Positions 3,492 to 36,920 of a stretch of 64,000 bases of DNA are shown one piece after another. The first letter of the stretch is position 1, and every line of letters begins with the position of its first letter. The notes under the pieces are model-generated. The model was given only the letters and a program-made list of their open reading frames with translations, was not told the origin of the DNA and ran no database searches. Source of the DNA: an uncultured Gammaproteobacteria bacterium. Its GTDB lineage: Bacteria; Pseudomonadota; Gammaproteobacteria; CAKMZV01. Both the position numbers and the translations under genes were made by a program. The stretch covers positions 12,442-76,441 of the forward strand of contig CAKMZV010000005.1 of assembly GCA_929200535.1 (NCBI GenBank), written 5' to 3'.

Positions 3492-4645
3492 TTCAATTTT
3501 TTTATTGCCTGCTCAATATCGCCAGGTAGTTGTGCTTCATCTTTTAATCTGCTTTGATGAAATTTATCATATTTTTCTTGTGCCAGTTGATCGGCTATTT
3601 GTTTTGTTACGTTTCCTGCATTGGTTAAAACTTCTTGGTTATTAAGTTGTAGAAATGCATCTAATTTTTCACGCCAATCTTTCATAAACATTTGTTTGTG
3701 ATTTTTAGCTTGGAGCTCGGCATAGTCTAAATACATTGTTACAATTCTGTTGAGCGTGTCTAATTCCTCTTTATATAGGCTACCTCTATTAAATATGACC
3801 CGTGTAAAAAAGCGAAAAATTCTCCCCAATTTCGTTGAAAAAAGTGGCAATAGAATGGCTATTACTCACTTTTTCCGCCTCATTGGGAATAATTTTTCAT
3901 CTTTTTTCCATCGTCCCATATTTAATAGAGATAGCCGATAATTTTTAGAAATAGTAACATCTTGTTTTCTTACTTTGTTTCCTTGCCAAGTCGTAAGCCC
4001 CATATTATCTTGCTTGACATCACTACGTTCTGCAATTACCTCGGCGGCGGTATGACCAGTCGCTGCAAAAATAAGTTTGTTTTGCACCACTTTAAAAAAT
4101 TCTTGTGTTTCTTCTGCCTTGGGTTCATAGTCTATGGATAGGGCATAAATATCCGTAATTTTGCGGTAAAAACGTTTTTCACTGGAACGTATATCTCGTA
4201 TCTCTTCTAATAGGTCATCAAAATAATCTTTACCAAAAGGGTTATCAGGATTTTTGAGTTTTTTATTATCAAGAACAAAACCTTTAATAATCAGTTCTTT
4301 TAGTTGCCGTGTTGCCCAAATTCTAAAGTGTGTTCCACGAATGGAATTGACTCGATAGCCTACTGAAATAATCATATCCAAATTGAAGAAATCCATTTGG
4401 TATGTTTTACCGTCTGTGGCAGTTGTTGCAAATTTTGCAACAACTGAATCTTTCTCTAACTCTTTGGTTTTATAGATGTTTTTGATGTGGCGACTGATGC
4501 CACTCTTATCAATGCCAAAAAGTTCTGCCATTTGATTGATGGTAAGCCAAATGGTTTCATCTTTGAGTAATACATCTACCTTTACCTCACCGTCTGGATT
4601 TCGGTAGAGTAAAAAATTGTTATGCTTGTTTGTTGCTTTATTCAC
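3488..4645 (-). pseudogene. rhuM: rhuM-family virulence/Fic-associated protein gene, split by a MITE insertion
   Basis: ORF 3866..4645 (259 aa) matches the RhuM N-terminal and central regions (...WLTINQMAELFGIDKSGISRHIKNIY...NLDMIISVGYRVNSIRGTHFRIWATRQLKELIIKGF...). ORF 3488..3850 carries the RhuM C-terminus (...DYAELQAKNHKQMFMKDWREKLDAFLQLNNQEVLTNAGNVTKQIADQLAQEKYDKF...). The break coincides with the 159-bp TIR element at 3778-3936. Confidence 0.7.
3778..3936. mobile_element. MITE-like element, family B copy 1 (20-bp TIR ggctacctctattaaatatg / catatttaatagagatagcc), inserted in rhuM
   Basis: Near-perfect terminal inverted repeats. A second copy with the same termini and subterminal module (atatgacccgtgtaaaaaagcga) lies at ~41656-41827. 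No ORF of transposase size. Confidence 0.65.
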
Positions 4646-4802
4646 TATTGGGTGGAAATAGTTGTTGTAATAAGCCTTTTTTATGGGTTTGCAATTATAG
4701 CAATCATGCGGATGAAAACACCACGGGAGGGGAATAACTACTCCGTCACTTCGTGGTATTCCTCTATGGGGGGAATAATCGCTTATTTTCGTATAAGAGT
4801 CT

Positions 4803-6242
4803 TCAGAGTTTTTGCTTGAGGAATTTATTGACTTCGGCTGGGTTTGCTTTGCCTTGGCTGGCTTTCATAATTTGTCCGACAAAGTAGCCGAATAGTTTGT
4901 CTTTGCCATCACGGTAGGCAGCGACTTGGTCTGGGTTTTGGGCGATTACTTCATCGACCATTTTTTCAATGGCTCCACTGTCGGTGATTTGTCTAAGCCC
5001 TTTTTTGTCGATAATTTCATCAACTTGTCCGCCATTTTGCCATAGTTCTTCAAAGATTTCTTTGGCGATTTTTCCAGAGATGGTTTTATCTGTGATGCGT
5101 TTAATGATTGTGCCGAGTTGTTCGGCTGATACTGGGCTTTCTTGGATATAGAGGTTGTCTTGGTTGAGCAGACCGGAGAAGTCGCCCATTACCCAGTTGG
5201 CACAAATTTTGTATTCTGTGCCGACGGTGTCGCATACGTTTTCAAAAAAATCGGCAATTTCACGTGAGTTGGTGAGCACTTGGGCATCGTATTCAGTGAG
5301 TTGGTATTGGTTTTGAAAGCGTTCACGTCGTGCATCGGGGAGTTCAGGTAGGTCTTTGGCAGCTAGTTTTATATCTTCGTCACTAACAATGACAGGGAGT
5401 AAATCTGGGTCTGGGAAGTAGCGGTAGTCATTGGCTTCTTCTTTGGTACGCATTGAGCGCGTTTCGCTTTTTTCTGAGTCGAATAGGCGAGTTTCTTGTA
5501 TAACTTTTTCACCTTTATCGAGCAGGGTGCTTTGTCTTTGGATTTCGTATTCTAAGGCTTTTTCTAAGAATTTAAAGGAGTTGATGTTTTTGATTTCCGC
5601 TCGGGTGCCGAGGGGGTCGCCTTTTTTATGTAGGGAAATGTTGGCATCCATACGGAATGAGCCTTCTTGCATATTGCCATCACAGATGCGTAGGTATTGC
5701 ACAATGGAGTGCATTTTTTTGGCGTAGGCAATGGTTTCTTCAATGGAGAATAAATCGGGTTCTGAAACAATTTCCAATAAGGGAGTGCCGGCACGGTTAA
5801 GATCAACACCACTTTGGTTAATAAAGTTTTCGTGTAATGATTTTCCAGCATCTTCTTCAAGGTGTGCTCGAGTAATCCCAATAATTTTGGTGCTTTTATC
5901 GGCGAGGGTGATGGTTATTTTTCCTTGACCAACGATTGGGAGTTCGTATTGGCTAATTTGATATCCTTTGGGGAGGTCGGGGTAGAAGTAGTTTTTGCGT
6001 GCAAACACCGAGCGTTTGCCAATTTCGGCTTCAATAGCTATGCCAAATTGTATTGCCATTTTAAGGGCTTGTTGATTGAGTACGGGAAGTACGCCTGGTA
6101 ATCCTAAATCAATGCCACAGGCTTGAGTATTGGGGGGTGAGCCAAATTTGGTTGAGGCAGGGGAGAAAATTTTAGTTTTGGTCGCGAGTTGGGCGTGAAT
6201 TTCTAAGCCGATAACGGGTTGCCAAGCATTCGTTTTATTCAT
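4803..6242 (-). CDS. gatB: Asp-tRNA(Asn)/Glu-tRNA(Gln) amidotransferase subunit B
   Basis: Full-length GatB similarity ([19 protein letters not shown]..., GatB/YqeY C-terminal domain). Sits in a gatCAB operon. Confidence 0.95.
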
Positions 6243-6264
6243 TGTCTTTTAGTAGAAAAATCGA

Positions 6265-7740
6265 TTAGTCAAAATTCGGTGGTGTTTGCAGGTGCCAGTC
6301 TGTGTTTTTTTGGTATTGATGGGCAATGTTTAAGATGTTATGCTCTTGTTTGTAGTTGCCAATGAGTTGCATTCCAAGCGGCCGTTTTTTCTCATCAAAA
6401 CCAATCGGTAATGCCATTGCAGGTAAGCCTGCGAGATTTACTGGAATGGTGAATATATCTTCCATATACACATTAACTGGGTCTTGATTATGAGAGTTAA
6501 GATTAAAGGCTGAGCCGGGCTTGGCTGGGAGGAGAATAGCTTCTACTTGTGAGAATGTGTTTTGAAATTGATTGGTGATGATTTGTCTGACTTTTTGAGC
6601 TTGTAGGTAGTAAGCATCAAAATAGCCTGCAGAGAGGACGTAAGTGCCTATCATTAATCGTCTTTTAACTTCTTCTCCAAATCCCTCAGAGCGAGAGCGT
6701 TTGTAAAGGTCCATCAAATCAACAGGGTCTTGACAGCGATAGCCATAGCGAACACCATCATAGCGTGAGAGGTTTGAGGAGGCTTCGGCAGAGGCAATAA
6801 TGTAGTAGGCAGCAATGGCACTTTGTAGGTTGTCAATTTCAATATTGACAATTTCGCAGCCGAGTTTTTTATATTCTTCTATGGCTTCGGTTAAGTGTTC
6901 TAAATTTGCCTTTCCTAGAATTTTTTGATCTTGCTCAAATAGGTGGTAGGGAACGCCGATTTTTTTTCCGCTGATTGAATCTTCAAGGTGTTGGCTGGTA
7001 GTGGTCTCGGGTTGTTGAATTGAGGTTGAGTCTTTTTCATCAAAGCCACTAATCACATCGAGTAAAAAAGCACAATCAGCAGCACTTTTTGCCATCGGTC
7101 CACCTTGATCTAAACTTGAGGCAAAGGCAATTTGCCCCCAACGGGATACAACGCCATAGGTTGGTTTTAAGCCAGTAATTCCACAGCAGGCAGCTGGTTG
7201 GCGAATTGATCCTCCGGTATCGGTTCCTACGGATAGAGGAGTTAATCTTGCGGCAACGGCAGCGGCAGAGCCACCTGAGGAACCACCAGGAATTGCATTT
7301 AAATCCCAAGGGTTGTGAGTGCTTCCAAAATAGCTCGTTTCAGTGGTTGAGCCCATAGCAAATTCATCCATATTGAGTTTGCCAAGAAGGGGCATATTTT
7401 GGGCAAAAACTTTGGCAGTAACCGTGGCGTTATAAGGGGCAATAAAATTTTCCAACATTCGACTGGCACAGGTGGTTTTTCCTCCATCTACGCAATAAAT
7501 ATCTTTGAGGGCAATAGGAATGCCTGTTAGCGGTGTGCAGTTGTTTTTTGCTCGTGCGGCATCGGCTTGCTTAGCTTGCTCTAAGGCTTGTTCTTCATTA
7601 AGGCTGATATAGGCTTTGGTTTTTTCATCAAGGCTTTTGCTACGCTCTAAAAAGTGCGTGGTGAGTTCAACGCTGCTTATTTTTTGTTGCGATAGTTGTT
7701 GGGAAAGTTCTTGAACACTGAGGTGGTGTAATTTACTCAT
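6265..7740 (-). CDS. gatA: Glu-tRNA(Gln) amidotransferase subunit A (amidase signature family)
   Basis: Amidase signature GGSSGGSAAAVAA. Full-length GatA similarity, adjacent to gatB and gatC. Confidence 0.95.
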   Translation of the reverse strand: MSKLHHLSVQELSQQLSQQKISSVELTTHFLERSKSLDEKTKAYISLNEEQALEQAKQADAARAKNNCTPLTGIPIALKDIYCVDGGKTTCASRMLENFIAPYNATVTAKVFAQNMPLLGKLNMDEFAMGSTTETSYFGSTHNPWDLNAIPGGSSGGSAAAVAARLTPLSVGTDTGGSIRQPAACCGITGLKPTYGVVSRWGQIAFASSLDQGGPMAKSAADCAFLLDVISGFDEKDSTSIQQPETTTSQHLEDSISGKKIGVPYHLFEQDQKILGKANLEHLTEAIEEYKKLGCEIVNIEIDNLQSAIAAYYIIASAEASSNLSRYDGVRYGYRCQDPVDLMDLYKRSRSEGFGEEVKRRLMIGTYVLSAGYFDAYYLQAQKVRQIITNQFQNTFSQVEAILLPAKPGSAFNLNSHNQDPVNVYMEDIFTIPVNLAGLPAMALPIGFDEKKRPLGMQLIGNYKQEHNILNIAHQYQKNTDWHLQTPPNFD

Positions 7741-7765: not shown

Positions 7766-7805
7766 GAGACTTTTTCACTTGTCATATTTTTTGTGCAAAG
7801 GTCTC
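7766..7805. repeat. minimal family-A element or solo terminus (gagactttttcac...acttgtcatattttttgtgcaaaggtctc) between gatC and gatA
   Basis: Contains the 28-bp family-A terminus (reverse complement of gagacctttgcacaaaagatatgacaagt) paired with a short degenerate gagac half-site. Confidence 0.5.
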
Positions 7806-8091
7806 ACTCTATAATGGTGGGCACAAGATATAATCCAGCTTCTGTTTGTGGGGCATTTTGTTGCATTTTTTCTCGCTGGTCTTTTTCTGTAACTACATCT
7901 TCACGTAATCTTTGGGTGATGGCTAAGGGGCTGGACATTGGCTCTACCTTAGATGTATCCACCTGATTAATTTGATCAATCAAGCTGATAACTTGATTAA
8001 ACTGTTCGGTAAATTTTGGGAGCTCTTGATCATTAAAATGAAGGCGTGCAAGATGAGCAACTTGTTTGATATTTTCGCTTTTTATGGACAT
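7804..8091 (-). CDS. gatC: Asp-tRNA(Asn)/Glu-tRNA(Gln) amidotransferase subunit C
   Basis: 95-aa protein, MSIKSENIKQVAHLARL..., typical GatC size and position upstream of gatA. Confidence 0.85.
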   Translation of the reverse strand: MSIKSENIKQVAHLARLHFNDQELPKFTEQFNQVISLIDQINQVDTSKVEPMSSPLAITQRLREDVVTEKDQREKMQQNAPQTEAGLYLVPTIIE

Positions 8092-8242: not shown

Positions 8243-9325
<1,083 letters not shown>

Positions 9326-9328
9326 TTT

Positions 9329-9625
9329 GAGACCTTTGTACAAAAGATATGACAAGTAAAAAAGTAAAAAATTGCCTTGATTTTTATTCGCAAGCGCTTC
9401 AAACGCTGTTACTCTATGGTTCGTAAACTCACCAAGAGTAAAAACGCTTTTTGTGTTGTGAAACTTGCGAAGACGGACGTATTAGCTTCATTTCACGCCT
9501 CAATCAGAATAATTTTTTATCTTTTTTCTTTTACCTGCAAGCAGTTCAAACACTGTTACTCTAAGGCTCGCAAGCTCGCCAAGAGTAAAAACGTTTTTTG
9601 TGCCATACTTTTATGTAAAGGTCTC
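9329..9625. mobile_element. MITE-like element, family A copy 1 (TIR gagacctttgtacaaaag...cttttatgtaaaggtctc), with an internal ~70-bp module duplicated
   Basis: Begins 4 bp after the mreB stop. ~95% identical over shared parts to the copy at 30036-30263. Internal module (caagcgNttcaaacRctgttactctaWggYtcgYaaRctcRccaagagtaaaaacgYtttttgtg) is present twice (9379-9450, 9536-9606). Confidence 0.7.
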
Positions 9626-9665
9626 AATTTGTTTCTTTGATGCAATTAGATATGAAGCCCATTAG

Positions 9666-22815: not shown

Positions 22816-22825
22816 TTCTAATCTG

Positions 22826-22857
22826 CGACCTTTGCATCTCTTTTATGCAAAGGTCTC
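22826..22857. terminator. perfect palindromic hairpin (gacctttgcat-ctctttt-atgcaaaggtc) = minimal family-A element; likely bidirectional terminator between convergent genes
   Basis: 11-bp perfect stem with 7-nt loop, 11 nt after the hlyD stop. Sequence equals fused family-A termini. Confidence 0.5.
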
Positions 22858-23248
22858 AATCTATAACAATTTCCTCTTTATTAAACTTTTTCCTAACAAA
22901 GTTAAGGGCAGGGAGGAGATTGAATTTTTGAATAAAATATCTCTCAAACTTTTGCTTTTTAGGAAAATCTAACAGAATAATACCGATAAGAATGGTGAGG
23001 ATGCCTTGACCAGGGGTGAATAGAAAAACAATCCCAATCAATAAAAAGAACACCCCAAAAAAATTAGAAACAAAAAATAAAATGGGGTTTTTTCGCCTCT
23101 TTTCTTTGATGAAATAATCATACGGGATTTTGCAAATTAAAAACGGAGTAATCAACAGAGAAACCACAAATAGCGTGGCACTAATTATCGAAATATAGAG
23201 CAAAATAGTAGTGTAATCAAGACTTGAGATAAATTCTATAATATTCAT
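22856..23248 (-). CDS. small inner-membrane protein (PGPGW-like)
   Basis: 130 aa, 3-4 predicted TM helices, TPGQGILTILIGIILLDFP motif. No confident family. Confidence 0.45.
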   Translation of the reverse strand: MNIIEFISSLDYTTILLYISIISATLFVVSLLITPFLICKIPYDYFIKEKRRKNPILFFVSNFFGVFFLLIGIVFLFTPGQGILTILIGIILLDFPKKQKFERYFIQKFNLLPALNFVRKKFNKEEIVID

Positions 23249-26285: not shown

Positions 26286-26756
26286 TTATTGTTTTTTTGA
26301 TAATTCTGTATTGTGATATTTTATACAATTTGTGACTTCTTTGCCAGCCCACTGAGGTATTTTGATATTTTCTTGTTCTGATTGTAGTTCAATTTCGGCA
26401 ATAAGTAGTGGGTGATGTTTGCCCATAAATTCATCAACAGTCCATTGTTTGTTGTTATAAGGTATATGGTGACGCTTTTTTTCAATAATAGAGGATATGC
26501 ACAAATTTTTAAGCATATGGCGAGCCTCTTCAATGGGGATAGGGTATTCAAATTCATCACGAGAAATTCCAAGTTCTAAACTTTTTATGGTGATATAGGC
26601 GTTGTTATCGGTAATGCGAATACGCACGGAAGATTTTATTGTTTGTTCAGTATCGGGTAGGACAAGGTAGCCTTGTGCGATTTGTTGGGTAGAGTCAATG
26701 TGTGGACGCCAAGAATTATCCTTAATTAGAAATTTACGCTCAATCTCTCTTGGCAT
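26286..26756 (-). CDS. CYTH-domain protein (triphosphate tunnel metalloenzyme, CyaB/YgiF-like)
   Basis: N-terminal EIERKFLI signature and acidic/basic tunnel residues typical of CYTH. Confidence 0.75.
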   Translation of the reverse strand: MPREIERKFLIKDNSWRPHIDSTQQIAQGYLVLPDTEQTIKSSVRIRITDNNAYITIKSLELGISRDEFEYPIPIEEARHMLKNLCISSIIEKKRHHIPYNNKQWTVDEFMGKHHPLLIAEIELQSEQENIKIPQWAGKEVTNCIKYHNTELSKKQ

Positions 26757-26765
26757 AAAGATAGC

Positions 26766-28550
26766 CTATGTATTAAGCATAATTTTAAATGCTTCTTGCG
26801 GGAGCTCTACTTTGCCGATTGCCTTCATTCGTTTTTTGCCTTTTTTCTGTTTTTCTAAGAGTTTTTTCTTGCGGCTAATATCGCCTCCGTAGCATTTGGC
26901 AGTCACATTTTTGCGTAGTGCTTTGACGTTTGTTCTTGCAATAATTTTTCCCCCAATAGCTGCTTGTAGTGCCACTTCAAACATCTGGCGATCAATAAAT
27001 TCTTTGAGTTTGTCAATCATTACTCTACCACGTGCAGTGGCAAATGAGCGGTGCATTAGGGTGGCAAGTGCATCAACTTTTTCACTGTTAATAAGAACAT
27101 CAACTTTTACCAGGTCAGAAGCTTCATAGTCGGAAAGTTCATAGTCCATTGAGGCGTATCCTCGGCTGATGGATTTTAGACGTTCAAAAAAATCAATCAC
27201 AACTTCGGCGAGTGGAATGCGATAGCTAAGTTGTACTTGGGAACCGAGGTATTGAATGTTGCGTTGTTGCCCACGTTTTTCCATACAGAGAGTGATAATT
27301 GAGCCAATGTATTCTTGTGGGGCATAAATTTCCGCATTAACCATAGGCTCTAAAATTTGTTCGATAACGGTTGTATCGGGGAGTGCCGAGGGACTTTCAA
27401 TAAGTTGGGTTTCTTGGTTTTTTAATTTCACTTGATAGACAACTGTTGGGGTTGTTGAGATAAGCTCAAGTTGATATTCTCTTTCTAAACGTTCTTGGAT
27501 AATTTCCATATGGAGTAAGCCAAGAAAACCACAACGAAAGCCAAATCCAAGTGCATCAGAGGTTTCAGGTTCGTATTGTAGAGCAGCGTCGTTGAGCTGC
27601 AATTTGCCAAGAGCTTCGCGTAAATCCTCGTAATTTTCAGCCGATATGGGATATAGACCGGCAAAGACTCGAGGCTGTATTGCTTGAAAGCCAGCGAGGG
27701 GTTTTTCTGCTGGTTTGGAGGGTGAAGTAAGTGTGTCTCCGACAGGCACTCCATAAATATCTTTTACGCCAGCAACAACATAGCCAACGGAACCGTTGGT
27801 AAGGGTTTTTTGTGGCGTGCGACGTGGAGAAAAAATTCCAACATCGGTAATAAGATGCTTTTCTTGAGATGACATTACTAACATTTCACTACGGGCGTGC
27901 ATTTCTCCAGCAACTATTTTGACTAAAGAGACAACGCCAAGGTAACTATCAAACCAAGAGTCAATAATTAGGGCTTGTAATGGTTCTTCGCTTCTGTCTT
28001 CAGGGGCAGGAATATTCTTAACGACTGCTTGTAATAGTTCATCAATACCGATGCCACTTTTGGCACTGACGCAAACCGCATTTTCTGCTGATATACCAAT
28101 AATCTCTTCAATTTCTTTTTTGGTTTTTTCGATATCAGCTGCAGGTAAATCGATTTTATTGATAATGGGTATGATTTCTAAACCAAGTTCAATGGCTGTG
28201 TAGCAGTTGGCTACGGTTTGTGCTTCAACCCCCTGTGAGGCATCGACTACTAATAATGCCCCATCACAAGCGGCAAGTGAGCGTGATACTTCATAGGAAA
28301 AATCGACGTGTCCTGGAGTGTCAATAAAATTTAGACTATAGGTTTTTTTATCTTCAGGGGAAGTATATTGTAAAGAAACGCTTTGAGCTTTGATAGTAAT
28401 GCCACGCTCTTTTTCTATTTCCATTGAATCCAAAACTTGTTGGGTCATTTCACGTGCTGAAAGCCCTCCACAATGTTCAATTAGGCGATCAGAAATAGTT
28501 GATTTCCCATGATCAATATGGGCAATAATAGAGAAATTCCTGATGTTCAT
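26766..28550 (-). CDS. lepA: elongation factor 4 (translational GTPase LepA)
   Basis: [15 protein letters not shown]1 motif, DTPGHVDF, LepA-specific C-terminal domain. Confidence 0.95.
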
Positions 28551-28571: not shown

Positions 28572-29993
28572 TTAAGGTAGAAATAGAGTTGTAAATAGTG
28601 TGCGTTGATTACGATATATGAGTACACGAAAACGAGTTCTTTTAGGGGCACTTTCAACAATTTTACGAAATTGGCTGACGGATTCTATTTCGTGATTTTG
28701 TAGAGTGAGAATAACATCATTTTTTTCTATTCCTGCACGGTTTGCTGGTCCATCCGTAAATACATCTTTTACCAGAATACCTTGTTGTAGTTCATTCAAC
28801 ATTTCATCACTTAAATTAATTACTTTGATGCCAACACGAGTGATGCTATATCCAATGTTGTTTCTTTTTTTTCTTTTTTTTCTATTTCGAGGCTCAAGTT
28901 CATCTACGGCAATATTCAGTGTTTTGGGTTTGCCATTACGAATAATTTTTACAGGTACTTTTTTGCCGATAGGAGTAATACCGACAATGGGTGGAAGGTT
29001 GTATGAGCGATTGATTTTTGTGCCATTAAAATTCACAATGACATCGCCTACTTCAATCCCACCTTTTTGTGCAGGGGTATCATCAATAACTGCTGAAACT
29101 AAGGCTCCATGGGGTGCTGACATATGAAACGTTTCTGATAGCTCAGAGGTAATTTCTTGAATTTGTACCCCAAGATAGCCACGACTAACACTACCTTTTT
29201 CTTTAAGCTCTTTAACAATGTATTTTACAAGGTTAGAGGGTATAGCAAAGGAAACGCCCATAAAGCCACCACTACGACTATAGATTTGAGAATTTACTCC
29301 AACAACATTTCCATTCAAATCAAATAATGGTCCTCCTGAATTGCCAGGATTAATAGCAACATCTGTTTGAATAAAAGAAACATAAGCATCGGCAGGTAGG
29401 CTACGCTCTTTAGCACTGACAATTCCAGCAGTAACTGAGTAATCAAAACCAAAAGGGGAGCCTATGGCAATGACCCATGCACCCACTTTTAATTTGGCTG
29501 AATTACCAAATGTGATAATGGGGAGATTATTTCTTTTAACTTTTAGCAGGGCAATATCTGTGCGCGGATCGCTCCCCATTACTTGAGCCTTTTTGACTTT
29601 TAAATCATTAAAGCGTACAAAGATTTCGTCGGCACCATCAATAACGTGGTGATTGGTGACAATATAGCCATCTTCACTGACAATAAAACCAGAACCCAGT
29701 GAGTGGTGCTGTGGTGCACCTCCATTAGGTTCGTCTCGAGGGTTTGAAGGGTCAGGTTGATTGAAAAAATATTTTAGCCATTCATCAGGTAAACCTCTAA
29801 ACTGAGGCGGAATTTCTTGCGAATTTGCAGGTTGATACTTTTTTGTGCTAATGTTCACTACGGCTTGACTTTGTTTTTTAGCAAGTTTGGTAAAGTCAGG
29901 CAGTGAGTTGGCGTGTAAATTCCCTGTTGATAGCAATAAGAGAGCAGAAAATAAAAAGGTGGTTAGCTGGCACCTGTTTGGTAAAATAGTCAT
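28572..29993 (-). CDS. degQ: periplasmic serine endoprotease DegP/DegQ (HtrA family, two PDZ domains)
   Basis: Signal peptide, catalytic triad context (TNHHV, D, GNSGGPL), two PDZ domains. Start set at the ATG at 29993. The longer tool ORF runs into the MITE. Confidence 0.9.
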   Translation of the reverse strand: MTILPNRCQLTTFLFSALLLLSTGNLHANSLPDFTKLAKKQSQAVVNISTKKYQPANSQEIPPQFRGLPDEWLKYFFNQPDPSNPRDEPNGGAPQHHSLGSGFIVSEDGYIVTNHHVIDGADEIFVRFNDLKVKKAQVMGSDPRTDIALLKVKRNNLPIITFGNSAKLKVGAWVIAIGSPFGFDYSVTAGIVSAKERSLPADAYVSFIQTDVAINPGNSGGPLFDLNGNVVGVNSQIYSRSGGFMGVSFAIPSNLVKYIVKELKEKGSVSRGYLGVQIQEITSELSETFHMSAPHGALVSAVIDDTPAQKGGIEVGDVIVNFNGTKINRSYNLPPIVGITPIGKKVPVKIIRNGKPKTLNIAVDELEPRNRKKRKKRNNIGYSITRVGIKVINLSDEMLNELQQGILVKDVFTDGPANRAGIEKNDVILTLQNHEIESVSQFRKIVESAPKRTRFRVLIYRNQRTLFTTLFLP

Positions 29994-30035
29994 ATTGGTT
30001 AAGGTTAATTTAGAAAATGAAAATTTATAAAAGTT

Positions 30036-30263
30036 GAGACCTTTGCACAAAAGATATGACAAGTAAAAAAGTAAAAAGTTGCCCTGATTTTTATCCGCAA
30101 GCGGTTCAAACGCTGTTACTCTATGGTTCGTAAACTCACCAAGAGTAAAAACGCTTTTTGTGTTGTGAAACTTGCAAAGACGGACGTATTAGCTTCATTT
30201 CACGCCTCAATCAGAACAATTTTTTATCTTTTTTCTTTTGCCATACTTTTATGCAAAGGTCTC
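30036..30263. mobile_element. MITE-like element, family A copy 2 (228 bp; TIR gagacctttgcacaaaag...cttttatgcaaaggtctc)
   Basis: Near-identical to 9329-9625 but with a single internal module. 18-bp perfect TIRs. No coding capacity beyond a ~25-codon ORF. Confidence 0.7.
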
Positions 30264-30372
30264 AAGTTATTTAATTAATTATACTTGCCCACGTAAGTAT
30301 TAGAGGTAGCTTTGTTTAAGAGAAGATTAATGCTTAATACACTACTATGCATAATATTTTCATCTCTTTAAT

Positions 30373-30837
30373 TTAAAGTTTCTGTTTTATTTGTAAGCCA
30401 AATGTCTTTTTTTTTGTAAAATGGTTTGCTGTTAGCCAAATAAGTGTGGTGCTTGCGAAGGCAATACACAGACTCCCCCATTGAGAGGGGAGAAGATAGA
30501 GGAGTAGCAGTAAAACTAGTGTTGGGAGAAGCCATAAAAAAAGCTGAATTTTTAGTATGTTGGTTTGTGAGAGTGATAGAGAGAGCGTGCTGCCAATGGG
30601 GAAGTGTTTTTTAGAGTAAATAATGACTTGTTGTTGATTTTTGTCAGTGGATGTTTTGGGCTTTAGTAACAGTTTTTTCCACAGCATAGAACCACAGTAT
30701 CCACCGCAACATTGTGTATTATCTGCTTGACAATCCATAGGTTGTAGGTTGAGCGTATGTTTGTTCTTGTGTTGTTCACTCACTTGTGCATTAATTTGAA
30801 TGTGTGAAGTAGTTGAGGGTATAGATGATGTAGGCAT
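30373..30837 (-). CDS. RseC/MucC-family membrane protein (SoxR-reducing-system-like), translationally coupled to rpoH
   Basis: N-terminal Cys cluster (DCQADNTQCCGGYCGS), a beta-like segment (PIGSTLSLSLSQTNILK), then two TM helices (LLLLYLLPS...). Colinear with E. coli RseC. Start ATG overlaps the rpoH stop (TAATG). Confidence 0.5.
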   Translation of the reverse strand: MPTSSIPSTTSHIQINAQVSEQHKNKHTLNLQPMDCQADNTQCCGGYCGSMLWKKLLLKPKTSTDKNQQQVIIYSKKHFPIGSTLSLSLSQTNILKIQLFLWLLPTLVLLLLLYLLPSQWGSLCIAFASTTLIWLTANHFTKKKTFGLQIKQKL

Positions 30838-31955
30838 TATCTTGTCTCCATACTATTTTTAATTTTCTTTAAGGCAACCGCCTCAATTTGCCTGACTCTT
30901 TCTAAGGAAACATTATGTTTTTCTGATAGATCTTTTAGGGTAATTTTATTACCAGAGAGCCATCTTTCTTGAATAATTTCTTTGCTCCGCTCATCTAATT
31001 GCCCAATGGCTTTAATCATTCGTTGTTTTTGAAATTCAAAATTATCAGAATCAACAAGGATTTTTTCAGGTGAGTAGCGTGTATCAGAGAGGTATTGGGC
31101 TGGTACTAAGGTATTCTCATCATCATTTTCACCGAGATCAAAAGTGGCGTCGGATTGAGTCATCCTGCCTTCCATTTGATAGACTTCTGAAACTTTGACA
31201 TCTAATTTTTTAGCGATACGTTGTGCTTCATCACCATCAACCCAATCTAAATTTTTCTTTGAACTTCGGAGTTTGAAAAATAGTTTGCGTTGTGCTTTGG
31301 TGGTTGCCATTTTAATAATACGCCAATTTTTAATAATAAATTCGTGTATTTCTGCACGTACCCAGTGCGAGGCAAAGGACATTAATTTAACTTTTTTTTC
31401 AGGTTGAAATTTTTTAATGGCACGCATTAGCCCAACATTACCCTCTTGTACTAAGTCGGGTAAGGGTAAGCCATATCCAGAGTATTTTTGTGCGATGGCG
31501 ATAACATAGCGTAAATTGCTAAAAACTAATTTTTGGGCAGCTTCAAGATCGTTATATTTATGGATTCTATTGGCTAATTCCCATTCTTCTTCACTACTTA
31601 ATTTTGGTGCGGAGTTAGCACTCTGTACATATTTTTCAAAGCTTCCAGTATCTTGAAATGGGACTAAGGCTTGAGTTTCGGTTTCATCGTTTTTTTTCAG
31701 GGTTAGTGTTTGAGCACCCTCGATTTTAGGTTGTGAATTCCCTTCAACAAACTGCTTTTCATTTTTTTTATTATGTGTGGGAGGAGTAGCTTCCTCTTCA
31801 TCTTCAATAGTTTCTAACTCTTCTATATTGATAAAATCATCAGCATTGTCAAAAAACTCAGGAGTTTCTTCAGGCGAATTTTTTTCAACGGAATTGAGGA
31901 TTAAATCACCGTTTTTTTTAGCTTTATCTTTGTTAGTCTGATTTTTTTTAATCAT
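30837..31955 (-). CDS. rpoH: RNA polymerase sigma-32 (heat-shock sigma factor RpoH) with ~90-aa acidic N-terminal extension
   Basis: RpoH box QRKLFFKLR, region 2 (LVQEGNVGLMRAIKKF...SFASHWVRAEIHEF), region 4 HTH. Conserved RpoH N-terminus begins ~aa 95. The only in-frame ATG, GTG or TTG upstream of it is the ORF's first codon. Confidence 0.85.
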   Translation of the reverse strand: MIKKNQTNKDKAKKNGDLILNSVEKNSPEETPEFFDNADDFINIEELETIEDEEEATPPTHNKKNEKQFVEGNSQPKIEGAQTLTLKKNDETETQALVPFQDTGSFEKYVQSANSAPKLSSEEEWELANRIHKYNDLEAAQKLVFSNLRYVIAIAQKYSGYGLPLPDLVQEGNVGLMRAIKKFQPEKKVKLMSFASHWVRAEIHEFIIKNWRIIKMATTKAQRKLFFKLRSSKKNLDWVDGDEAQRIAKKLDVKVSEVYQMEGRMTQSDATFDLGENDDENTLVPAQYLSDTRYSPEKILVDSDNFEFQKQRMIKAIGQLDERSKEIIQERWLSGNKITLKDLSEKHNVSLERVRQIEAVALKKIKNSMETR

Positions 31956-31963
31956 TAGTTATT

Positions 31964-32428
31964 TTAAGAAGAGAATGATTGAGCTAATTGTTTGTCAATA
32001 GCTTGTTGCTCTACCCATCGATGAGTTCCGTCTTGATAGGTTTCTTTTTTCCAAAAGGGGGCAGCAACTTTGAGCGAATGAATGATAAATTCACAAGCTT
32101 GTAGAGCATTGATACGTTTGGGAGCACAGCAAATAACCAGTACAATGTTTTCCGCAGGTTTGAGTTCGCCAATGCGGTGAATGATTGAATAGGCACTGAG
32201 TTGCCATTTTTCACAGGCTTGATTGGCGATTTTTTGGAGCATTTTTTGGGTCATTGCGGGGTAGTGCTCTAAATATAGAGAGGAGATTTTGGATTGTTTT
32301 TTATCATCCCCATTGAAGTCACGAACTAAGCCGATAAATGAAGCAATTGCTCCTATATCAGTACGTTTTTGGGTGAGTTTGTGAATTTCCTCTTGAAGGT
32401 CAAAGTCAGAGTGTTGGACTTGAATCAT
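31964..32428 (-). CDS. moaE: molybdopterin synthase catalytic subunit
   Basis: Colinear with E. coli MoaE (...LEHYPAMT...IHRIGEL...APFWKKE...RWVE). Start at internal ATG (MIQVQHSDF). Confidence 0.8.
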   Translation of the reverse strand: MIQVQHSDFDLQEEIHKLTQKRTDIGAIASFIGLVRDFNGDDKKQSKISSLYLEHYPAMTQKMLQKIANQACEKWQLSAYSIIHRIGELKPAENIVLVICCAPKRINALQACEFIIHSLKVAAPFWKKETYQDGTHRWVEQQAIDKQLAQSFSS

Positions 32429-32436
32429 TGGTTGCT

Positions 32437-32682
32437 TTATCCTCCGGTGATTGGGGGAAAAAGGGCAATTTCGGCATTCTCTGGGATAGGGGATTCCCAA
32501 GTACTTAAATTCTGGTTAATTGCAATTTGTGTTTCTGGATTATTTAGTGCTTGTTGCCATTTTTCACCACGCTGGCAGAGGTGGGCTTTTAATTCATTTG
32601 CAGTGGCAAAAGATTGCTCAATTGGCTCTTCAGCAATGCCAAGTTGTTCTTTCAGTTTGGCAAAGTATAGAATGTTAATCAT
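32437..32682 (-). CDS. moaD: molybdopterin synthase sulfur-carrier subunit
   Basis: 81 aa ending in GG. MINILYFAKLKEQLG N-terminus typical of MoaD/ThiS fold. Sits between moaA and moaE. Confidence 0.7.
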   Translation of the reverse strand: MINILYFAKLKEQLGIAEEPIEQSFATANELKAHLCQRGEKWQQALNNPETQIAINQNLSTWESPIPENAEIALFPPITGG

Positions 32683-32710
32683 AATTTGGCAGAGATAGGC
32701 ACTATTATCG

Positions 32711-33709
32711 TTATCCGCCGAGTGATACCATTTGACGAAATTCAATATTTTTTCGATTTTCATTGAAAAAATGACGCTCTGGTTTTAGTTCCATCGATTT
32801 GACAATCATAGCCTCAAGTTCATTATCGCTGATGCCATCACGTATTGGTTGGCGTAAATCAATGGAATGTTCTTGCCCCAGACATAAGGCAAGCGTGCCT
32901 CTTGAGGTGAGACGTACGCGGTTGCAGGTGGCACAAAAATGTTGTGATACAGCGGAAATAACGCCGATACCGAGGTGTTTTTTTTCAGTACGGTAGTATT
33001 TTGCCGGTCCACCACCTTGGCGGCTAATGCTCGGAATTAGTTTTTCACCAAGGTGTTTTTCAACCCGCTCAAGCATTTCTTGCATTGGGATGTGTTTGTT
33101 CATTGAGTCAATCCCAGATTTTCCAATCGGCATTATTTCAATAAAGCGTAATTCAAGCCCGTATTTTGCGCTCCAATCAATGAGGTTTTCCATTTGGTCG
33201 TCATTAACTCCTCTCATCATTACGGTATTGATTTTGATTGGATCAAAGCCAATTTTTTTGGCTTGATAAATGCCTGTGAGAACTTTATTAAGGTTTCCAC
33301 CTCGGGTGATGCGATTAAATTCATCTGCGTTGAGCGTATCTAATGAAATATTCAGACGCCTAATGCCTGCTTGATAAAGGGGTTTTGCATAGCGTTCTAA
33401 GCGAGTGGCGTTAGTGGATAATGAGAGATCTAAATTGTCATTATCTTGGTTTATCATTGATACTATTTCGGTTAGATCTTTGCGTAAAAGAGGTTCGCCT
33501 CCAGTAAAGCGAATTCGCTTTACTCCAAGACGCACAAAAGCGGAGCAAATGCGAGAAATTTCTTCGGCAGTTAAATATTCAGTGTATTTGCCATTGGGGT
33601 GAACTCCTTTTGCTGGTGAGCAATAATCACAACGCAAATCACATTTATCCGTTACAGAAACGCGGATATAAGTAATTTCACGACCAAATGAATCAATTAG
33701 ACTTGTCAT
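32711..33709 (-). CDS. moaA: GTP 3',8-cyclase (radical SAM, molybdenum cofactor biosynthesis)
   Basis: CDLRCDYC radical-SAM cluster motif, C-terminal second cluster (CATCNRVRLTSRG), full-length MoaA similarity. Start codon lies inside a solo family-A repeat terminus. Confidence 0.9.
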   Translation of the reverse strand: MTSLIDSFGREITYIRVSVTDKCDLRCDYCSPAKGVHPNGKYTEYLTAEEISRICSAFVRLGVKRIRFTGGEPLLRKDLTEIVSMINQDNDNLDLSLSTNATRLERYAKPLYQAGIRRLNISLDTLNADEFNRITRGGNLNKVLTGIYQAKKIGFDPIKINTVMMRGVNDDQMENLIDWSAKYGLELRFIEIMPIGKSGIDSMNKHIPMQEMLERVEKHLGEKLIPSISRQGGGPAKYYRTEKKHLGIGVISAVSQHFCATCNRVRLTSRGTLALCLGQEHSIDLRQPIRDGISDNELEAMIVKSMELKPERHFFNENRKNIEFRQMVSLGG

Positions 33710-33730
33710 ATCTTTTGTGCAAAAGTCTCA
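33701..33730. repeat. solo family-A repeat terminus (acttgtcatatcttttgtgcaaaagtctca) overlapping the moaA start codon
   Basis: 28/30 match to the family-A terminus. The ATG ACA AGT of moaA is the atgacaagt of the repeat. Confidence 0.5.
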
Positions 33731-33889
33731 TTCTTTAATTTTATCGCTATGATTTAATTTATCAGCGTCTTTTTGACATTCTGTTAAATCAGCTTGGTAA
33801 GCATTCATATCAACTCCATCGGTATGAATAAAAGGAAGGGGGGCGATTACTACAGGCGGATAATACAAAAAGCAATAGAGTTATTATTT

Positions 33890-34252
33890 TTAATTTAATA
33901 CTTTATAGCCTCGGTTTTTTAAACATTTTTTAACAATACTGCTTTCTTCTTCATCATTCTTTAAGGCTCCTAAAGCTGTTCCTTCAGTAGCTCCGATGGC
34001 AGCGTGTGTGCCGACATTTTCTGGGTCAATTAAGGCACCAAGAGTACCTCGAAGTAATGCCCCAAAACCCGCACTTTTGGCAATGTTCTTACCGCTTTCT
34101 AACTGCTCTGCGACTTGTTCGCATTCAGCAAGATCAGTTTTATAAGCATCTATATCGATACCTTTAGTGTCGATAACTGGGCGACTGGCACAGGATGAAA
34201 GCAGTAGTGTTGACAGGGCAATTATCCAAAAAATGAAATTTTCTTTAACCAT
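33890..34252 (-). CDS. lipoprotein with glycine-zipper motif
   Basis: Lipobox LLSSC, then GFGALLRGTLGALIDP...GTHAAIGATEGTALGAL glycine-zipper-like segment. Overlaps the dsbA stop. Confidence 0.5.
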   Translation of the reverse strand: MVKENFIFWIIALSTLLLSSCASRPVIDTKGIDIDAYKTDLAECEQVAEQLESGKNIAKSAGFGALLRGTLGALIDPENVGTHAAIGATEGTALGALKNDEEESSIVKKCLKNRGYKVLN

Positions 34253-34871
34253 TTTTTAGTAAATAATTAATTATTTTGAAGATCTCATCTTTTCCCCCGG
34301 CGGTTTTTTCAGAAACACGATACTTCCCTTTAACAATAAAAGAGGGAACGCCTTCAATTTCAGATTTTTCAGTTAATTTTTTAGCTTGGGTCATTAAATT
34401 TTTAACCGCAAAACTATTGTAGGTTTTAGTAACGGTTTCTTTGTCAACTCCAACGCTTTTGAAAATATCGAAAATATCTTCTTGCGAGCGTAGTTGACCA
34501 GAGGAATAACGCTTAAAAATCTCCCCTTGAAGCTCATTGTGTTTTTTCAGTACGAATGCGACGTAGTAAAGTTGGACTGACCATTTGACACGTGGGGAGT
34601 AAAAAGCAGGTTGGTAGTGAAAATTAACTGTAGATTGTTTTGTTTTTAACCACTTTTCAACATATGGGTGAATATTTTTACAATGAGGACAACCATAGTA
34701 AAAAAACTCCACAACCTCAGGTTGCTTAGTCAGCGTGAACTCATTCTTCGGAGGGATTTTAAGATAATGTTTCCCTTCAATATACTTTTCTGCATTGCCT
34801 GACAAAGCAAGCAAAGAGAGAGTAGTTAACAAGAATGCTTTTGATAAAAGTGAAAGTGTTTTTGTTTTCAT
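34245..34871 (-). CDS. dsbA: thiol:disulfide interchange protein DsbA (copy 1)
   Basis: Signal peptide, CPHC active site (FFYYGCPHCKN), DsbA fold length (208 aa). Confidence 0.85.
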   Translation of the reverse strand: MKTKTLSLLSKAFLLTTLSLLALSGNAEKYIEGKHYLKIPPKNEFTLTKQPEVVEFFYYGCPHCKNIHPYVEKWLKTKQSTVNFHYQPAFYSPRVKWSVQLYYVAFVLKKHNELQGEIFKRYSSGQLRSQEDIFDIFKSVGVDKETVTKTYNSFAVKNLMTQAKKLTEKSEIEGVPSFIVKGKYRVSEKTAGGKDEIFKIINYLLKNG

Positions 34872-35027
34872 AATATTATTCTATAAGGTTGTTTTGAAAA
34901 AATTAAATAAAAGTGTAGCCTACAGTTCTCCATTATATCGATACCTTTGGTGTCGATAACTGGGCGACTGGCACAGGATGAAAGCAGTAGTGTTGACAGG
35001 GCAATTATCCAAAAAATGAAATTTTCT

Positions 35028-35654
35028 TTAACCATTTTTTAGTAAATAATTAATTATTTTGAAGATCTCATCTTTTCCCCCGGCGGTTTTTTCAGAAACA
35101 CGATACTTCCCTTTAACAATAAAAGAGGGAACGCCTTCAATTTCAGATTTTTCAGTTAATTTTTTAGCTTGGGTCATTAAATTTTTAACCGCAAAACTAT
35201 TGTAGGTTTTAGTAACGGTTTCTTTGTCAACTCCAACGCTTTTGAAAATATCGAAAATATCTTCTTGCGAGCGTAGTTGACCAGAGGAATAACGCTTAAA
35301 AATCTCCCCTTGAAGCTCATTGTGTTTTTTCAGTACGAATGCGACGTAGTAAAGTTGGACTGACCATTTGACACGTGGGGAGTAAAAAGCAGGTTGGTAG
35401 TGAAAATTAACTGTAGATTGTTTTGTTTTTAACCACTTTTCAACATATGGGTGAATATTTTTACAATGAGGACAACCATAGTAAAAAAACTCCACAACCT
35501 CAGGTTGCTTAGTCAGCGTGAACTCATTCTTCGGAGGGATTTTAAGATAATGTTTCCCTTCAATATACTTTTCTGCATTGCCTGACAAAGCAAGCAAAGA
35601 GAGAGTAGTTAACAAGAATGCTTTTGATAAAAGTGAAAGTGTTTTTGTTTTCAT
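35028..35654 (-). CDS. dsbA: thiol:disulfide interchange protein DsbA (copy 2, identical)
   Basis: 100% identical protein to copy 1, within the second 783-bp repeat unit. Confidence 0.85.
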   Translation of the reverse strand: MKTKTLSLLSKAFLLTTLSLLALSGNAEKYIEGKHYLKIPPKNEFTLTKQPEVVEFFYYGCPHCKNIHPYVEKWLKTKQSTVNFHYQPAFYSPRVKWSVQLYYVAFVLKKHNELQGEIFKRYSSGQLRSQEDIFDIFKSVGVDKETVTKTYNSFAVKNLMTQAKKLTEKSEIEGVPSFIVKGKYRVSEKTAGGKDEIFKIINYLLKNG

Positions 35655-35702
35655 AATATTATTCTATAAGGTTGTTTTGAAAAAATTAAATAAAAGTGTA
35701 GC

Positions 35703-36920
35703 CTACAGTTCTCCATAGGAATGAAGCCCAGATAAAAACATATTGACGCCAAGAAAGGCAAAGAGAGTAACGAATAGCCCAATAATAGCCCACCACGCCA
35801 TTAAGGTGCCTCGCCATCCTTTTGATATTCTTAGATGTAACCAAGCCGCATAGTTTAGCCACACAATCAATGCCCAAGTTTCTTTCGGATCCCAAGACCA
35901 ATACCCGCCCCAAGCCTCAGCCGCCCATAAGGCTCCGAGAATAGTGGCAATGGTAAAGGCAATAAAACCTAATGAAATTGCACGATAGGTTACCTCATCG
36001 ATAACCACTGTGGTGGGCATACGTTGTAACCAAAAAGATGGTTTTTCTTTTTGTTGGAAGTGATTGACGATTAACCATGCAATGGAGGTCATTGCGGCTA
36101 ATGCAAAAGCACCATAGCCGATAAAATTTGCTGGCACGTGAATTTTCATCCAATAGGAATTAAGGGCTGGAACTAAAGGCTGTATGTGGTGTGCGTTTCT
36201 TTCAAAGGCATACCACAGCAGGAAAGCAACCGCAAGCGAAACAATCAAGAGAGCAAAAAAGCCTAATTTGTAGTTTTGTAAGCGACGTTCTACTTGTAGA
36301 TAGATTAGCGTGGTAATCAAACAAAATAGAATAAAAACTTCATATAAATTACTGATTGGAATATGTCCGATTTGAGGGTCAATCAGGTAAGATTCGTGCC
36401 AACGAACTAATAATCCAGCAAAACCCATTACAACCCCTATCCATGCTAACTTACTGGATAATGCACCAATAAATTTATTGGTTGATAGAGTATGTGTTAA
36501 ATAGCCGATAGTTGAAAACACTAATAAAGCACTCATCCACATGACAGCAGATTGACTGGCAAAGAGATATTTAAGCCAAAAATTACTTTGTGCTAAATCA
36601 AGATTGTTTTGATATTGCCAAAGTGCAAAGAGGCTAATTACTCCAATAGCGATAAGGGCATATCTAAAAGCACGCCAATAAAAGCTGATGGAAAGCATCG
36701 TAATGACAGTAAAAATATAAATAACAACCTCAAAAACATCCATTGCTTGGCTATAGCGATAGCTAGCAAATAGAAAGAGAGTAGCCACCATCCATATTGA
36801 TGGAGAAAACAACGCTTCCCTAAGAAGGCGTTGGTCTATGGGTTCATTTATAGTTTGGTTTGCAGTAGTCACTTTATTATCATTAAAATAAGACGGCACA
36901 TTCATATTATAAGACGGCAC
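35703..36920 (-). CDS. ccsA: cytochrome c-type biogenesis protein CcsA/ResC (System II heme-handling protein)
   Basis: WWD/tryptophan-rich motif WAAEAWGGYWSWDPKETWALIVW, multiple TM helices. N-terminal ~100 aa poorly conserved, so the start is uncertain. Confidence 0.75.
   Translation of the reverse strand: MPSYNMNVPSYFNDNKVTTANQTINEPIDQRLLREALFSPSIWMVATLFLFASYRYSQAMDVFEVVIYIFTVITMLSISFYWRAFRYALIAIGVISLFALWQYQNNLDLAQSNFWLKYLFASQSAVMWMSALLVFSTIGYLTHTLSTNKFIGALSSKLAWIGVVMGFAGLLVRWHESYLIDPQIGHIPISNLYEVFILFCLITTLIYLQVERRLQNYKLGFFALLIVSLAVAFLLWYAFERNAHHIQPLVPALNSYWMKIHVPANFIGYGAFALAAMTSIAWLIVNHFQQKEKPSFWLQRMPTTVVIDEVTYRAISLGFIAFTIATILGALWAAEAWGGYWSWDPKETWALIVWLNYAAWLHLRISKGWRGTLMAWWAIIGLFVTLFAFLGVNMFLSGLHSYGEL

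Follow-up and report, generated by a model that had tools for sequence, protein, structure and literature searches.

The gene for the heat-shock sigma factor sigma-32 (rpoH) in an uncultured gammaproteobacterium that resembles sulfur oxidizers encodes an orthologue with an acidic N-terminal tail, and it lies immediately upstream of a gene for a divergent RseC-family membrane protein. We analyzed both genes in a stretch of 64,000 nucleotides (nt) from assembly GCA_929200535.1 (contig CAKMZV010000005.1, positions 12,442 to 76,441 of the forward strand; here called the window), which has a G+C content of 36.6%. The locus consists of known parts in an unusual arrangement and is not a new kind of system: an acidic-tailed sigma-32 occupies the slot of rpoE and rseAB beside a divergent rseC. 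The best explanation, which we hold with moderate confidence, is that the gene for an extended sigma-32 was relocated to the remnant of an rpoE operon, that its linkage to rseC reflects co-expression and that the tail tunes sigma-32. Sigma-32 is a textbook group-3 sigma factor, defined in part by the absence of any segment before region 1.2, and the way in which an mRNA thermosensor, DnaK/J, the signal recognition particle and FtsH control it is a paradigm.

A sigma-32 orthologue with an acidic N-terminal tail

The 372-amino-acid (aa) product of rpoH is a genuine sigma-32 orthologue (RpoH) with a canonical core from about residue 90 to residue 372, as a preliminary description of this DNA, made from the sequence alone, had recognized. 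NCBIfam model TIGR02392 (rpoH_proteo) scores the protein at 345.6 bits over residues 104-370, against an equivalog cutoff of 323.1; PRK06596 gives 359.3 bits against a cutoff of 241, and Pfam Sigma70_r2 and Sigma70_r4 both match. Residues 5-283 of E. coli RpoH in PDB entry 8HKC (8hkc_E) align to window residues 92-370 (E = 4e-83), so that the two proteins correspond throughout from about residue 90 on; region 2, region 4 and the RpoH box are all present. The box lies between regions 2.4 and 3.1, and in a 52-sequence RpoH alignment (A4) its columns, Q-R-K-L-F-F-x-L-R, are invariant or nearly so. The window box reads QRKLFFKLR, as opposed to the canonical QRKLFFNLR, and this N-to-K substitution is common to the whole clade. 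The derived motifs LM(S/T)FA, FFKLRS and VS(L/I)ER are shared by the window RpoH and its relatives P0004-P0010. Unlike E. coli rpoH, the window gene stands after moaADE and before rseC, not after ftsYEX. No heat-shock genes were found in the 64-kb window.

Group-3 sigma factors are ordinarily about 280-300 aa long, with nothing N-terminal of region 1.2. The window protein departs from this architecture: because the alignment with E. coli RpoH starts at window residue 92, residues 1-88/89 are extra, and 88-89 aa precede the position of E. coli residue 1. These residues correspond to the acidic extension of about 90 aa that had been noted before. The 89 tail residues include 20 D/E and 13 K/R, giving a net charge of -7 and a pI of 4.7 (residues 1-96 include 23 D/E and 13 K/R). 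The first ~16 residues, with the MIKKNQTNKDKAKKNGD cap, are basic; an acidic-hydrophobic stretch follows the cap, and residues 24-60 are strongly acidic. AlphaFold2, run with the 52-sequence alignment, gave predicted local distance difference test scores (pLDDT) below 50 for residues 1-93 and above 90 for most of the core, with a lone short tail helix at residues 44-52 (IEELETIED). On this model the tail is predicted to be intrinsically disordered.

Group-3 sigma factors lack region 1.1 (PMC10216364), and Pfam Sigma70_r1_1 (PF03979) found no match in the window RpoH at E <= 0.1. The tail resembles region 1.1 of sigma-70 in being a strongly acidic N-terminal appendage placed before region 1.2, but it has no sequence similarity to that region, is predicted to be disordered where region 1.1 is a helical domain, and is conserved in neither length nor sequence. 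The tail may nevertheless act in a way analogous to region 1.1.

Comparison with orthologues shows that tails recur in the closest relatives, with lengths between 9 and 89 aa, as a variable feature of a small uncultured gammaproteobacterial clade related to Thiotrichales/Thiomicrospira. Whereas the window tail measures 89 aa, those of P0002 and P0003 measure 65 aa each, followed by P0005 (59 aa), P0008 (54 aa), P0004 (52 aa), P0007 (51 aa), P0010 (37 aa), P0006 (31 aa) and P0009 (9 aa; also L229). All the long tails have a negative net charge, from -6 to -20, and the 9-aa tail of P0009 has one of -1. The tail sequence is not conserved and can be aligned no further than the closest relatives. 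Long-tailed relatives are labelled as Thiomicrospira or Thiotrichales metagenome-assembled genomes (MAGs). The lineage is undersampled: no genome representative shares more than 52% identity with the window RpoH, and among species representatives identity to the window LepA reaches no more than 69%, with the best matches in Sulfurivirga and Hydrogenovibrio.

An exhaustive HMMER search covered 1.84 billion representative proteins, and we inspected the 150 best RpoH-like matches. Most of these are 260-310 aa long, and a handful that are unrelated to the clade have N-terminal tails, mostly acidic. P0250 (395 aa), P0378, P0323 and P0259 have tails of 29-106 aa before a canonical RpoH core; they belong to unrelated lineages, and their tails are not homologous to that of the window protein. 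The tails of P0250, P0378 and P0323 have net charges of -21, -11 and -8, respectively, whereas the tail of P0259 is S/A/T-rich and that of P0382 is an N/I/E repeat. Acidic N-terminal tails on sigma-32 are therefore rare but recurrent among these proteins, and literature searches found no published description of an N-terminally extended RpoH.

A serious rival to a functional tail is neutral growth, in which an AT-rich genome, maybe under relaxed selection, tolerates a low-complexity, compositionally biased expansion at a disordered terminus. Such growth would leave sequences that cannot be aligned beyond the closest relatives, lengths ranging as widely as those in the clade and a terminus predicted to be disordered, all of which are found here; the repeat tail of the unrelated P0382 is typical of AT-rich drift, and the N-terminus of E. 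coli sigma-32 is itself flexible and unmodelled in the structure (PMC10216364). It would not readily explain why net negative charge is kept in all eight long clade tails, why each tail has an acidic-hydrophobic segment (for example FINIEELETIED), or why acidic tails arose independently in the unrelated lineages of P0250, P0378 and P0323. The last observation suggests selection on composition, and we consider neutral growth unlikely, though well worth keeping in view.

Several observations bear on whether the tail is translated. Codons 2-140 of rpoH contain no ATG, GTG or TTG, which bears out the earlier statement that there is only one in-frame start; a check for non-canonical starts found only rare ATT, ATC, ATA or CTG codons, none with a Shine-Dalgarno sequence. 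The first alternative starts lie beyond codon 140, and their use would remove region 1.2/2.1. The frame has 0 stops in the 89 tail codons, whereas the two remaining sense frames have 6 and 18, and all five other frames between 2 and 18. From local base composition, the probability that the tail frame is open by chance is 0.0006, and the joint chance that all extensions are open over six relatives is ~1e-11. There is likewise no usable internal start in P0002 (348 aa, locus L082) or P0005 (345 aa, locus L081); P0003 (locus L084) is the only relative with a plausible one, an ATG at codon 65 that lacks a Shine-Dalgarno sequence. Since codons 2-140 hold no ATG, GTG or TTG and the frame is free of stops, translation of the tail can, on these sequence grounds and short of proteomics, be regarded as established. 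We give almost no credence to an annotation artefact, with the true start downstream and the "extension" an untranslated leader open by chance: it would suit the missing Shine-Dalgarno sequence before the rpoH ATG and the gap of only 8 nt after moaE, but it is opposed by the absence of starts up to codon 140, the loss of region 1.2/2.1 beyond it, the low probability of a chance opening and the same lack of internal starts in L082 and L081.

Two further observations concern RpoH-like proteins in general. The anti-phage sigma factor MzaA (NCBIfam NF041931) was rejected as an identity for the window protein, which scores 131.9 bits against a cutoff of 800. Among the 150 best RpoH-like representatives, 17 are 480-900 aa long and have their RpoH-like part in the C-terminal half (among them P0256, P0263, P0269, P0271, P0274-P0277, P0279 and P0343); given that NF041931 also matched the window protein weakly, the length and layout of these proteins would suit MzaA-type sigma factors, which belong to the MZA anti-phage system. 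The RpoH homologue P0013 (392 aa) has an internal direct duplication of ~90 residues, from region 2.4 to the RpoH box, which is probably an assembly artefact, and we left it out of the alignments.

A divergent RseC encoded next to rpoH

On sequence comparison, the 154-aa protein encoded downstream of rpoH is a divergent RseC, in agreement with its earlier description as an RseC-family membrane protein. Pfam PF04246 (RseC_MucC) matches residues 43-145 with 28.2 bits against a gathering score of 24.4 (E = 1.9e-6). To avoid circularity, we used an independent hidden Markov model (HMM) built solely from 36 RseCs, namely 35 lepA-linked proteins of other genomes and E. coli RseC; with this model the window protein reaches 24.2 bits (E = 2e-5) and the L082 protein 26.7 bits. 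Further, hhalign aligned the clade alignment (A5) to one of 43 canonical RseCs (A8) with a probability of 89% (E = 2.4e-6). Identity to canonical RseC is 16-20% in alignment A2 and 18-27% in alignment A3. A word-seeded single-sequence search with the 154-aa protein returned itself alone, and a profile search returned canonical RseCs and no further clade members.

Genes in the same position in L082 and L084 encode proteins of 161 aa and 153 aa that are 45% and 44% identical to the window protein, respectively. All three share the motifs CCGGYCGS(L/M)LW, FP(I/L)G...LSLS and LWL(L/F)PTL, and the CCGGYCGS core is invariant across them. AlphaFold2 predicts helices at residues 91-115 and 122-153 (pLDDT 75-86) and beta strands at 12-30 and 84-90, with an overall pLDDT of only 58.6. 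Two helices after an N-terminal domain is the topology determined experimentally for E. coli RseC; canonical RseC has two transmembrane helices after a cytoplasmic N-domain, and its CX2CX5C motif is able to hold an Fe-S cluster (PMC11729352).

The window protein resembles the RseC/MucC/RnfF family in size (154 vs 159 aa), in the clustered cysteines of its N-terminal cytoplasmic domain, in a (V/I)G..V.L.L motif, in its two transmembrane helices and in its place upstream of degP-lepA. It differs in its cysteine motif, C-x6-CC-x3-C instead of CX2CX5C, and in being linked to rpoH, not to rpoE or rnf/rsx. C43 and C48 align with C29 and C35 of the E. coli protein, and E. coli C26 aligns with a non-cysteine, though C44 and C36 are nearby.

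Gene order at the lepA locus and the rpoH-rseC linkage

The genes under study form part of a series on the minus strand, in the order moaA-moaD-moaE, an 8-nt gap, rpoH, a TAATG overlap, rseC, a 379-nt spacer, degP and lepA. The placement of rpoH directly downstream of moaADE and the overlap of its stop with the start of the 154-aa gene, both reported before, were found as described (Table 1). In E. coli the order is rpoE-rseA-rseB-rseC-lepA-lepB, with a 4-nt overlap of rseB and rseC. The Pseudomonas counterpart is algU-mucABCD, upstream of lepA. The window has the same order of sigma gene, rseC/mucC, degP/mucD and lepA on one strand, and in both cases rseC follows its upstream neighbor in tight coupling. 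It differs from these loci in that its sigma factor is a group-3 RpoH and not of the extracytoplasmic function (ECF) type, in that RseA/MucA and RseB/MucB are absent, and in that no lepB follows lepA. No cognate membrane anti-sigma factor (RseA/MucA), as a sigma-E module would have, adjoins the window sigma gene.

To place this order among other genomes, we fetched 80 lepA loci, of which 63 have at least 5 kb of upstream sequence, and typed their neighbors with phmmer and HMMs. The dominant pattern is rpoE-rseA-rseB-(rseC)-(degP)-lepA-lepB. Upstream of lepA, rpoE is found in 46/63 loci and rseC in 29/63; rseC without rpoE occurs in 2/63 (L111 and L153), and rpoH in 0/63. In L111, a Hydrogenovibrio MAG, the order at 3392-7485 is rnr-rlmB-rseC-degP-lepA, and in L153 (4802-8779) a divergent nadB faces rseC-degP-lepA, both without rpoE-rseAB upstream; RseC has thus been retained independently of sigma-E in some lineages. 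Searches of window positions 20-40 kb with E. coli RpoE, RseA and RseB by phmmer gave no match, as opposed to the 46/63 lepA loci in which they are found. No rpoE, rseA, rseB or rnf gene was seen within the examined part of the window, and none lies between rpoH and rseC.

We also compared 133 other rpoH loci, consisting of 80 genome loci and 53 further loci (50 metagenomic and three from the relatives P0007 and P0008). Within flanks of 6-8 kb, an RseC homologue was found near rpoH in 0/80 and 0/53 of these, respectively. The order rpoH-rseC-degP-lepA occurs only in the window, L082, L083 and L084, which represent three diverged genomes (the window, L082/L083 and L084). The neighbor upstream of rpoH is moaE in the window and L082; in L084 it is a methyltransferase and an endonuclease gene, followed by a 500-nt gap. 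At the rpoH-rseC junction the two genes overlap by 1 base in the window and abut in L084, and a gap of 90 nt is called between them in L082. More distant long-tailed members of the clade have ftsY-ftsE-ftsX-rpoH (P0007) or lolC-lolD-rpoH (P0005 and P0008). The identical rpoH protein and locus have been assembled independently three times, and the clade is known only from the window organism (three assemblies) and two samples derived from the Sequence Read Archive; in metagenomes, neither a scan with the clade motif of RseC nor one with the RpoH alignment of the clade yielded a relative closer than 52%. Literature searches found no published description of an rpoH-rseC linkage.

These comparisons uphold the earlier view that the link between rpoH and rseC is unusual, given its absence from all 133 other loci, but the start/stop overlap on which that view also drew is not strictly conserved. 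The further proposal of a non-standard regulatory module for the heat-shock sigma factor gave way to a simpler reading. Because rseC-degP-lepA is the conserved 3' part of the rpoE-rseABC/algU-mucABCD-lepA locus, rpoH would have moved beside the remnant of an rpoE operon: the simplest history we can infer from gene order is that rseC-degP-lepA was inherited and that rpoH was relocated to its 5' edge in a sub-clade.

A true RpoH-RseC module would be one in which a divergent, cysteine-cluster RseC senses redox or envelope state and controls sigma-32 by tethering, release or stabilization, replacing lost RseA/RseB. The adjacency is indeed kept in three diverged genomes while the upstream neighbors differ, start and stop overlap or abut in 2/3 of them, and an RseC this divergent, with a remodelled CCGGYCGS motif, would fit a new function. 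Regulation of E. coli sigma-32 at the inner membrane is also known (PMC3866087). However, the synteny of rseC-degP-lepA fully accounts for the adjacency, L082 has its called gap, and in E. coli, too, rseC overlaps the gene upstream of it, which makes coupling a property of rseC and not of rpoH. Moreover, E. coli RseC is documented in the SoxR-reducing/Rsx system and not as a sigma-binding protein (PMC11729352). We regard such a module as distinctly unlikely, and a direct regulatory interaction between RseC and RpoH, although possible, as unsupported and equally doubtful. More far-reaching still, and very unlikely in our view, would be a history in which the sigma-E/RseA/RseB circuit was lost with sigma-32 in its place, an rpoH-rseC-degP operon unifies cytoplasmic and envelope responses, the tail acts as a region-1.1-like autoinhibitor or a membrane- or protease-directed handle, and a remodelled Fe-S RseC makes sigma-32 activity depend on membrane or redox state.

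Highly improbable, finally, is the possibility that, at the rpoE locus, a paralogue derived from RpoH replaced RpoE in its envelope-stress role, with a canonical rpoH elsewhere: its place in the rpoE/rseA/rseB position, its neighbor degP and a TIGR02392 score only modestly above the cutoff (345.6 vs 323.1) would agree with this, but it has an intact RpoH box and intact regions 2 and 4, its derived residues are common to relatives whose RpoH sits in the canonical ftsYEX context, and no second copy was seen within 64 kb.

Locus features, expression signals and proposed history

The features of the locus are collected in Table 1. The assignments of moaA, moaD, moaE, the protease and lepA are all supported by Pfam and NCBIfam, with Radical_SAM and Mob_synth_C found on moaA in L082 and L219, and Pfam GTP_EFTU and LepA_C on lepA of L219.

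Table 1. Features of the rpoH-rseC-degP-lepA locus and the upstream moa genes in window coordinates
Feature	Position	Strand	Remarks
rpoH coding sequence	30837..31955	-	372 aa; ATG 31955-31953; stop TAA 30839-30837; sigma-32 orthologue with N-terminal extension
N-terminal tail coding region, 89 residues	31689..31955	-	basic start MIKKNQTNKDKAKKNGD, then acidic and hydrophobic EFFDNADDFINIEELETIEDEEE
RpoH box QRKLFFKLR, residues 222-230	31266..31292	-	read from the translation
moaE-rpoH spacer, 8 nt, AATAACTA	31956..31963	-	no Shine-Dalgarno sequence; no space for a promoter
TAATG, overlap of rpoH stop and rseC start	30835..30839	-	rseC ATG 30837-30835; one base in common with rpoH TAA
GGAGA, Shine-Dalgarno sequence of rseC	30849-30845	-	within the 3' end of rpoH; 7 nt upstream of the ATG
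rseC-like open reading frame (ORF), divergent RseC/MucC-family inner-membrane protein, 154 aa	30373..30837	-	
Cysteine cluster C36-x6-C43-C44-x3-C48 of the RseC-like protein	30694..30732	-	alignments A2 and A5
Two predicted transmembrane helices of the RseC-like protein, ~residues 91-115 and 120-140	30418..30567	-	AlphaFold2 and hydrophobic stretches in the translation
Miniature inverted-repeat transposable element (MITE)-like repeat, ~250 bp, in the rseC-degP spacer	30025..30274	n/a	
degP/mucD-type HtrA serine protease, 473 aa from ATG 29993	28572..29993	-	TIGR02037 degP_htrA_DO, 488.6 bits
lepA, 594 aa, anchor of conserved synteny	26766..28550	-	57-69% identity to LepA of 80 genomes
moaA	32711-33709	-	upstream of rpoH
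moaD ORF	32437-32763	-	Pfam and NCBIfam matches
moaE ORF	31964-32500	-	stop 31964-31966; Pfam and NCBIfam matches

The spacer between rseC and degP, 379 nt in the window, is 78 nt in L084. The MITE-like element within it has imperfect inverted-repeat ends of 53 nt with the core TTGAGACCTTTGCA; this core has 8 matches against 0.77 expected. The stretch between mreB and mreC (~9318-9636) has a copy that is ~70 nt longer and more than 90% identical, and short palindromic or solo copies are found at 22823-22859, 7794-7807 and 33718-33731; these intergenic repeats form a MITE-like or REP-like (repetitive extragenic palindromic) family. The longest degP ORF begins at TTG 30062, within the repeat. 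We place the degP start at ATG 29993 (473 aa) on the basis of the gene call in another assembly (L219) and the position of the signal peptide.

Downstream of lepA, at 26286-26756, come genes for a CYTH-domain protein and a TolC-like outer-membrane protein; lepB does not follow lepA, unlike in 76/80 of the comparison loci, where lepA is followed by lepB. Upstream of the moa genes there is a near-perfect tandem duplication (34151-34933 and 34934-35716, with a period of 783 nt). Its longest mismatch-free run is 767 nt, and a repeat finder reported 300 nt as 100% identical. The duplicated unit contains dsbA (34245-34871 and 35028-35654) together with the 5' end of a gene for a 120-aa lipoprotein. 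Since two other assemblies of the same organism (L220 and L221) and the relative L082 have a single dsbA, the duplication is either strain-specific or an assembly artefact. An Rfam scan of the whole window at the gathering threshold gave no match.

Searches for expression signals gave mostly negative results. Sigma-70-like promoter hits do not exceed those in shuffled sequence (14 vs 17.2), and in the window, L082 and L084 the regions 5' of rpoH, moaA and degP have no match to the sigma-32 consensus within 3 mismatches. A single sigma-E-like match, with 2 mismatches and 92 nt before degP, is at the inner edge of the MITE-like element and largely in its inverted-repeat arm, and we did not rely on it. 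One fold, of a 360-nt stretch that comprises the final 60 nt of moaE and the initial 300 nt of rpoH, shows no significant stability (z = -0.57 vs shuffled); this single fold gives no stable structure of the kind expected for an RNA thermosensor, a local element in the start region being outside its reach. The rpoH starts of relatives are also without a clear Shine-Dalgarno sequence.

From these features we can outline how the locus may have arisen and work. After relocation to the 5' side of rseC-degP-lepA, rpoH would be transcribed together with moaADE and/or from promoters inside or upstream of them, which is probable because there is no space for a promoter of its own after moaE. It would be translated, probably inefficiently, from an A-rich, unstructured start without a Shine-Dalgarno sequence. 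Translation of rseC would be coupled to that of rpoH, as indicated by the one-base overlap and by the GGAGA with 7-nt spacing inside rpoH. The gene degP may formerly have been in the same unit, given the short spacer of L084, until insertion of the MITE-like element widened the gap in the window. The linkage would then mean that the heat-shock sigma factor is co-expressed with a putative Fe-S protein of the membrane and with a protease for quality control in the periplasm, and would not constitute an anti-sigma-type circuit. The tail most plausibly modulates sigma-32 itself, to judge from its composition and position only: it could mask DNA- or core-binding surfaces or occupy the DNA channel of RNA polymerase, like region 1.1 of sigma-70, or it could be a flexible terminus that alters FtsH/DnaK-dependent turnover.

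Several points weigh against this account. No promoter was assigned, with sigma-70 hits at or below those of shuffles and no good sigma-32 or sigma-E motif. The rpoH-rseC junction has been kept across ~20-30% divergence of RpoH and ~55% divergence of RseC, and the linkage itself could be selected. The window covers 64 kb, and rpoE, rseA, rseB or a second rpoH may lie elsewhere in the genome. Translation may begin at a rare non-canonical codon, or the tail may be processed. Finally, no similarity between the tail and region 1.1 is detectable, the tail is predicted to be unfolded, and its poor conservation and its range of 9-89 aa also fit neutral low-complexity growth.

For the family, a sigma-32 clade with an acidic, disordered tail of 30-90 residues offers a natural experiment on region-1.1-like autoinhibition or altered proteolysis, and the order rpoH-rseC-degP-lepA is an example of a stress-sigma locus that has been rebuilt. 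For annotators there is a caution: rseC beside a sigma gene does not here indicate sigma-E. The arrangement suggests, rather than shows, merged control of heat-shock and envelope-stress responses in a small-genome uncultured gammaproteobacterium, and its interest would be much greater if the genome lacks sigma-E or if the tail or RseC controls sigma-32.

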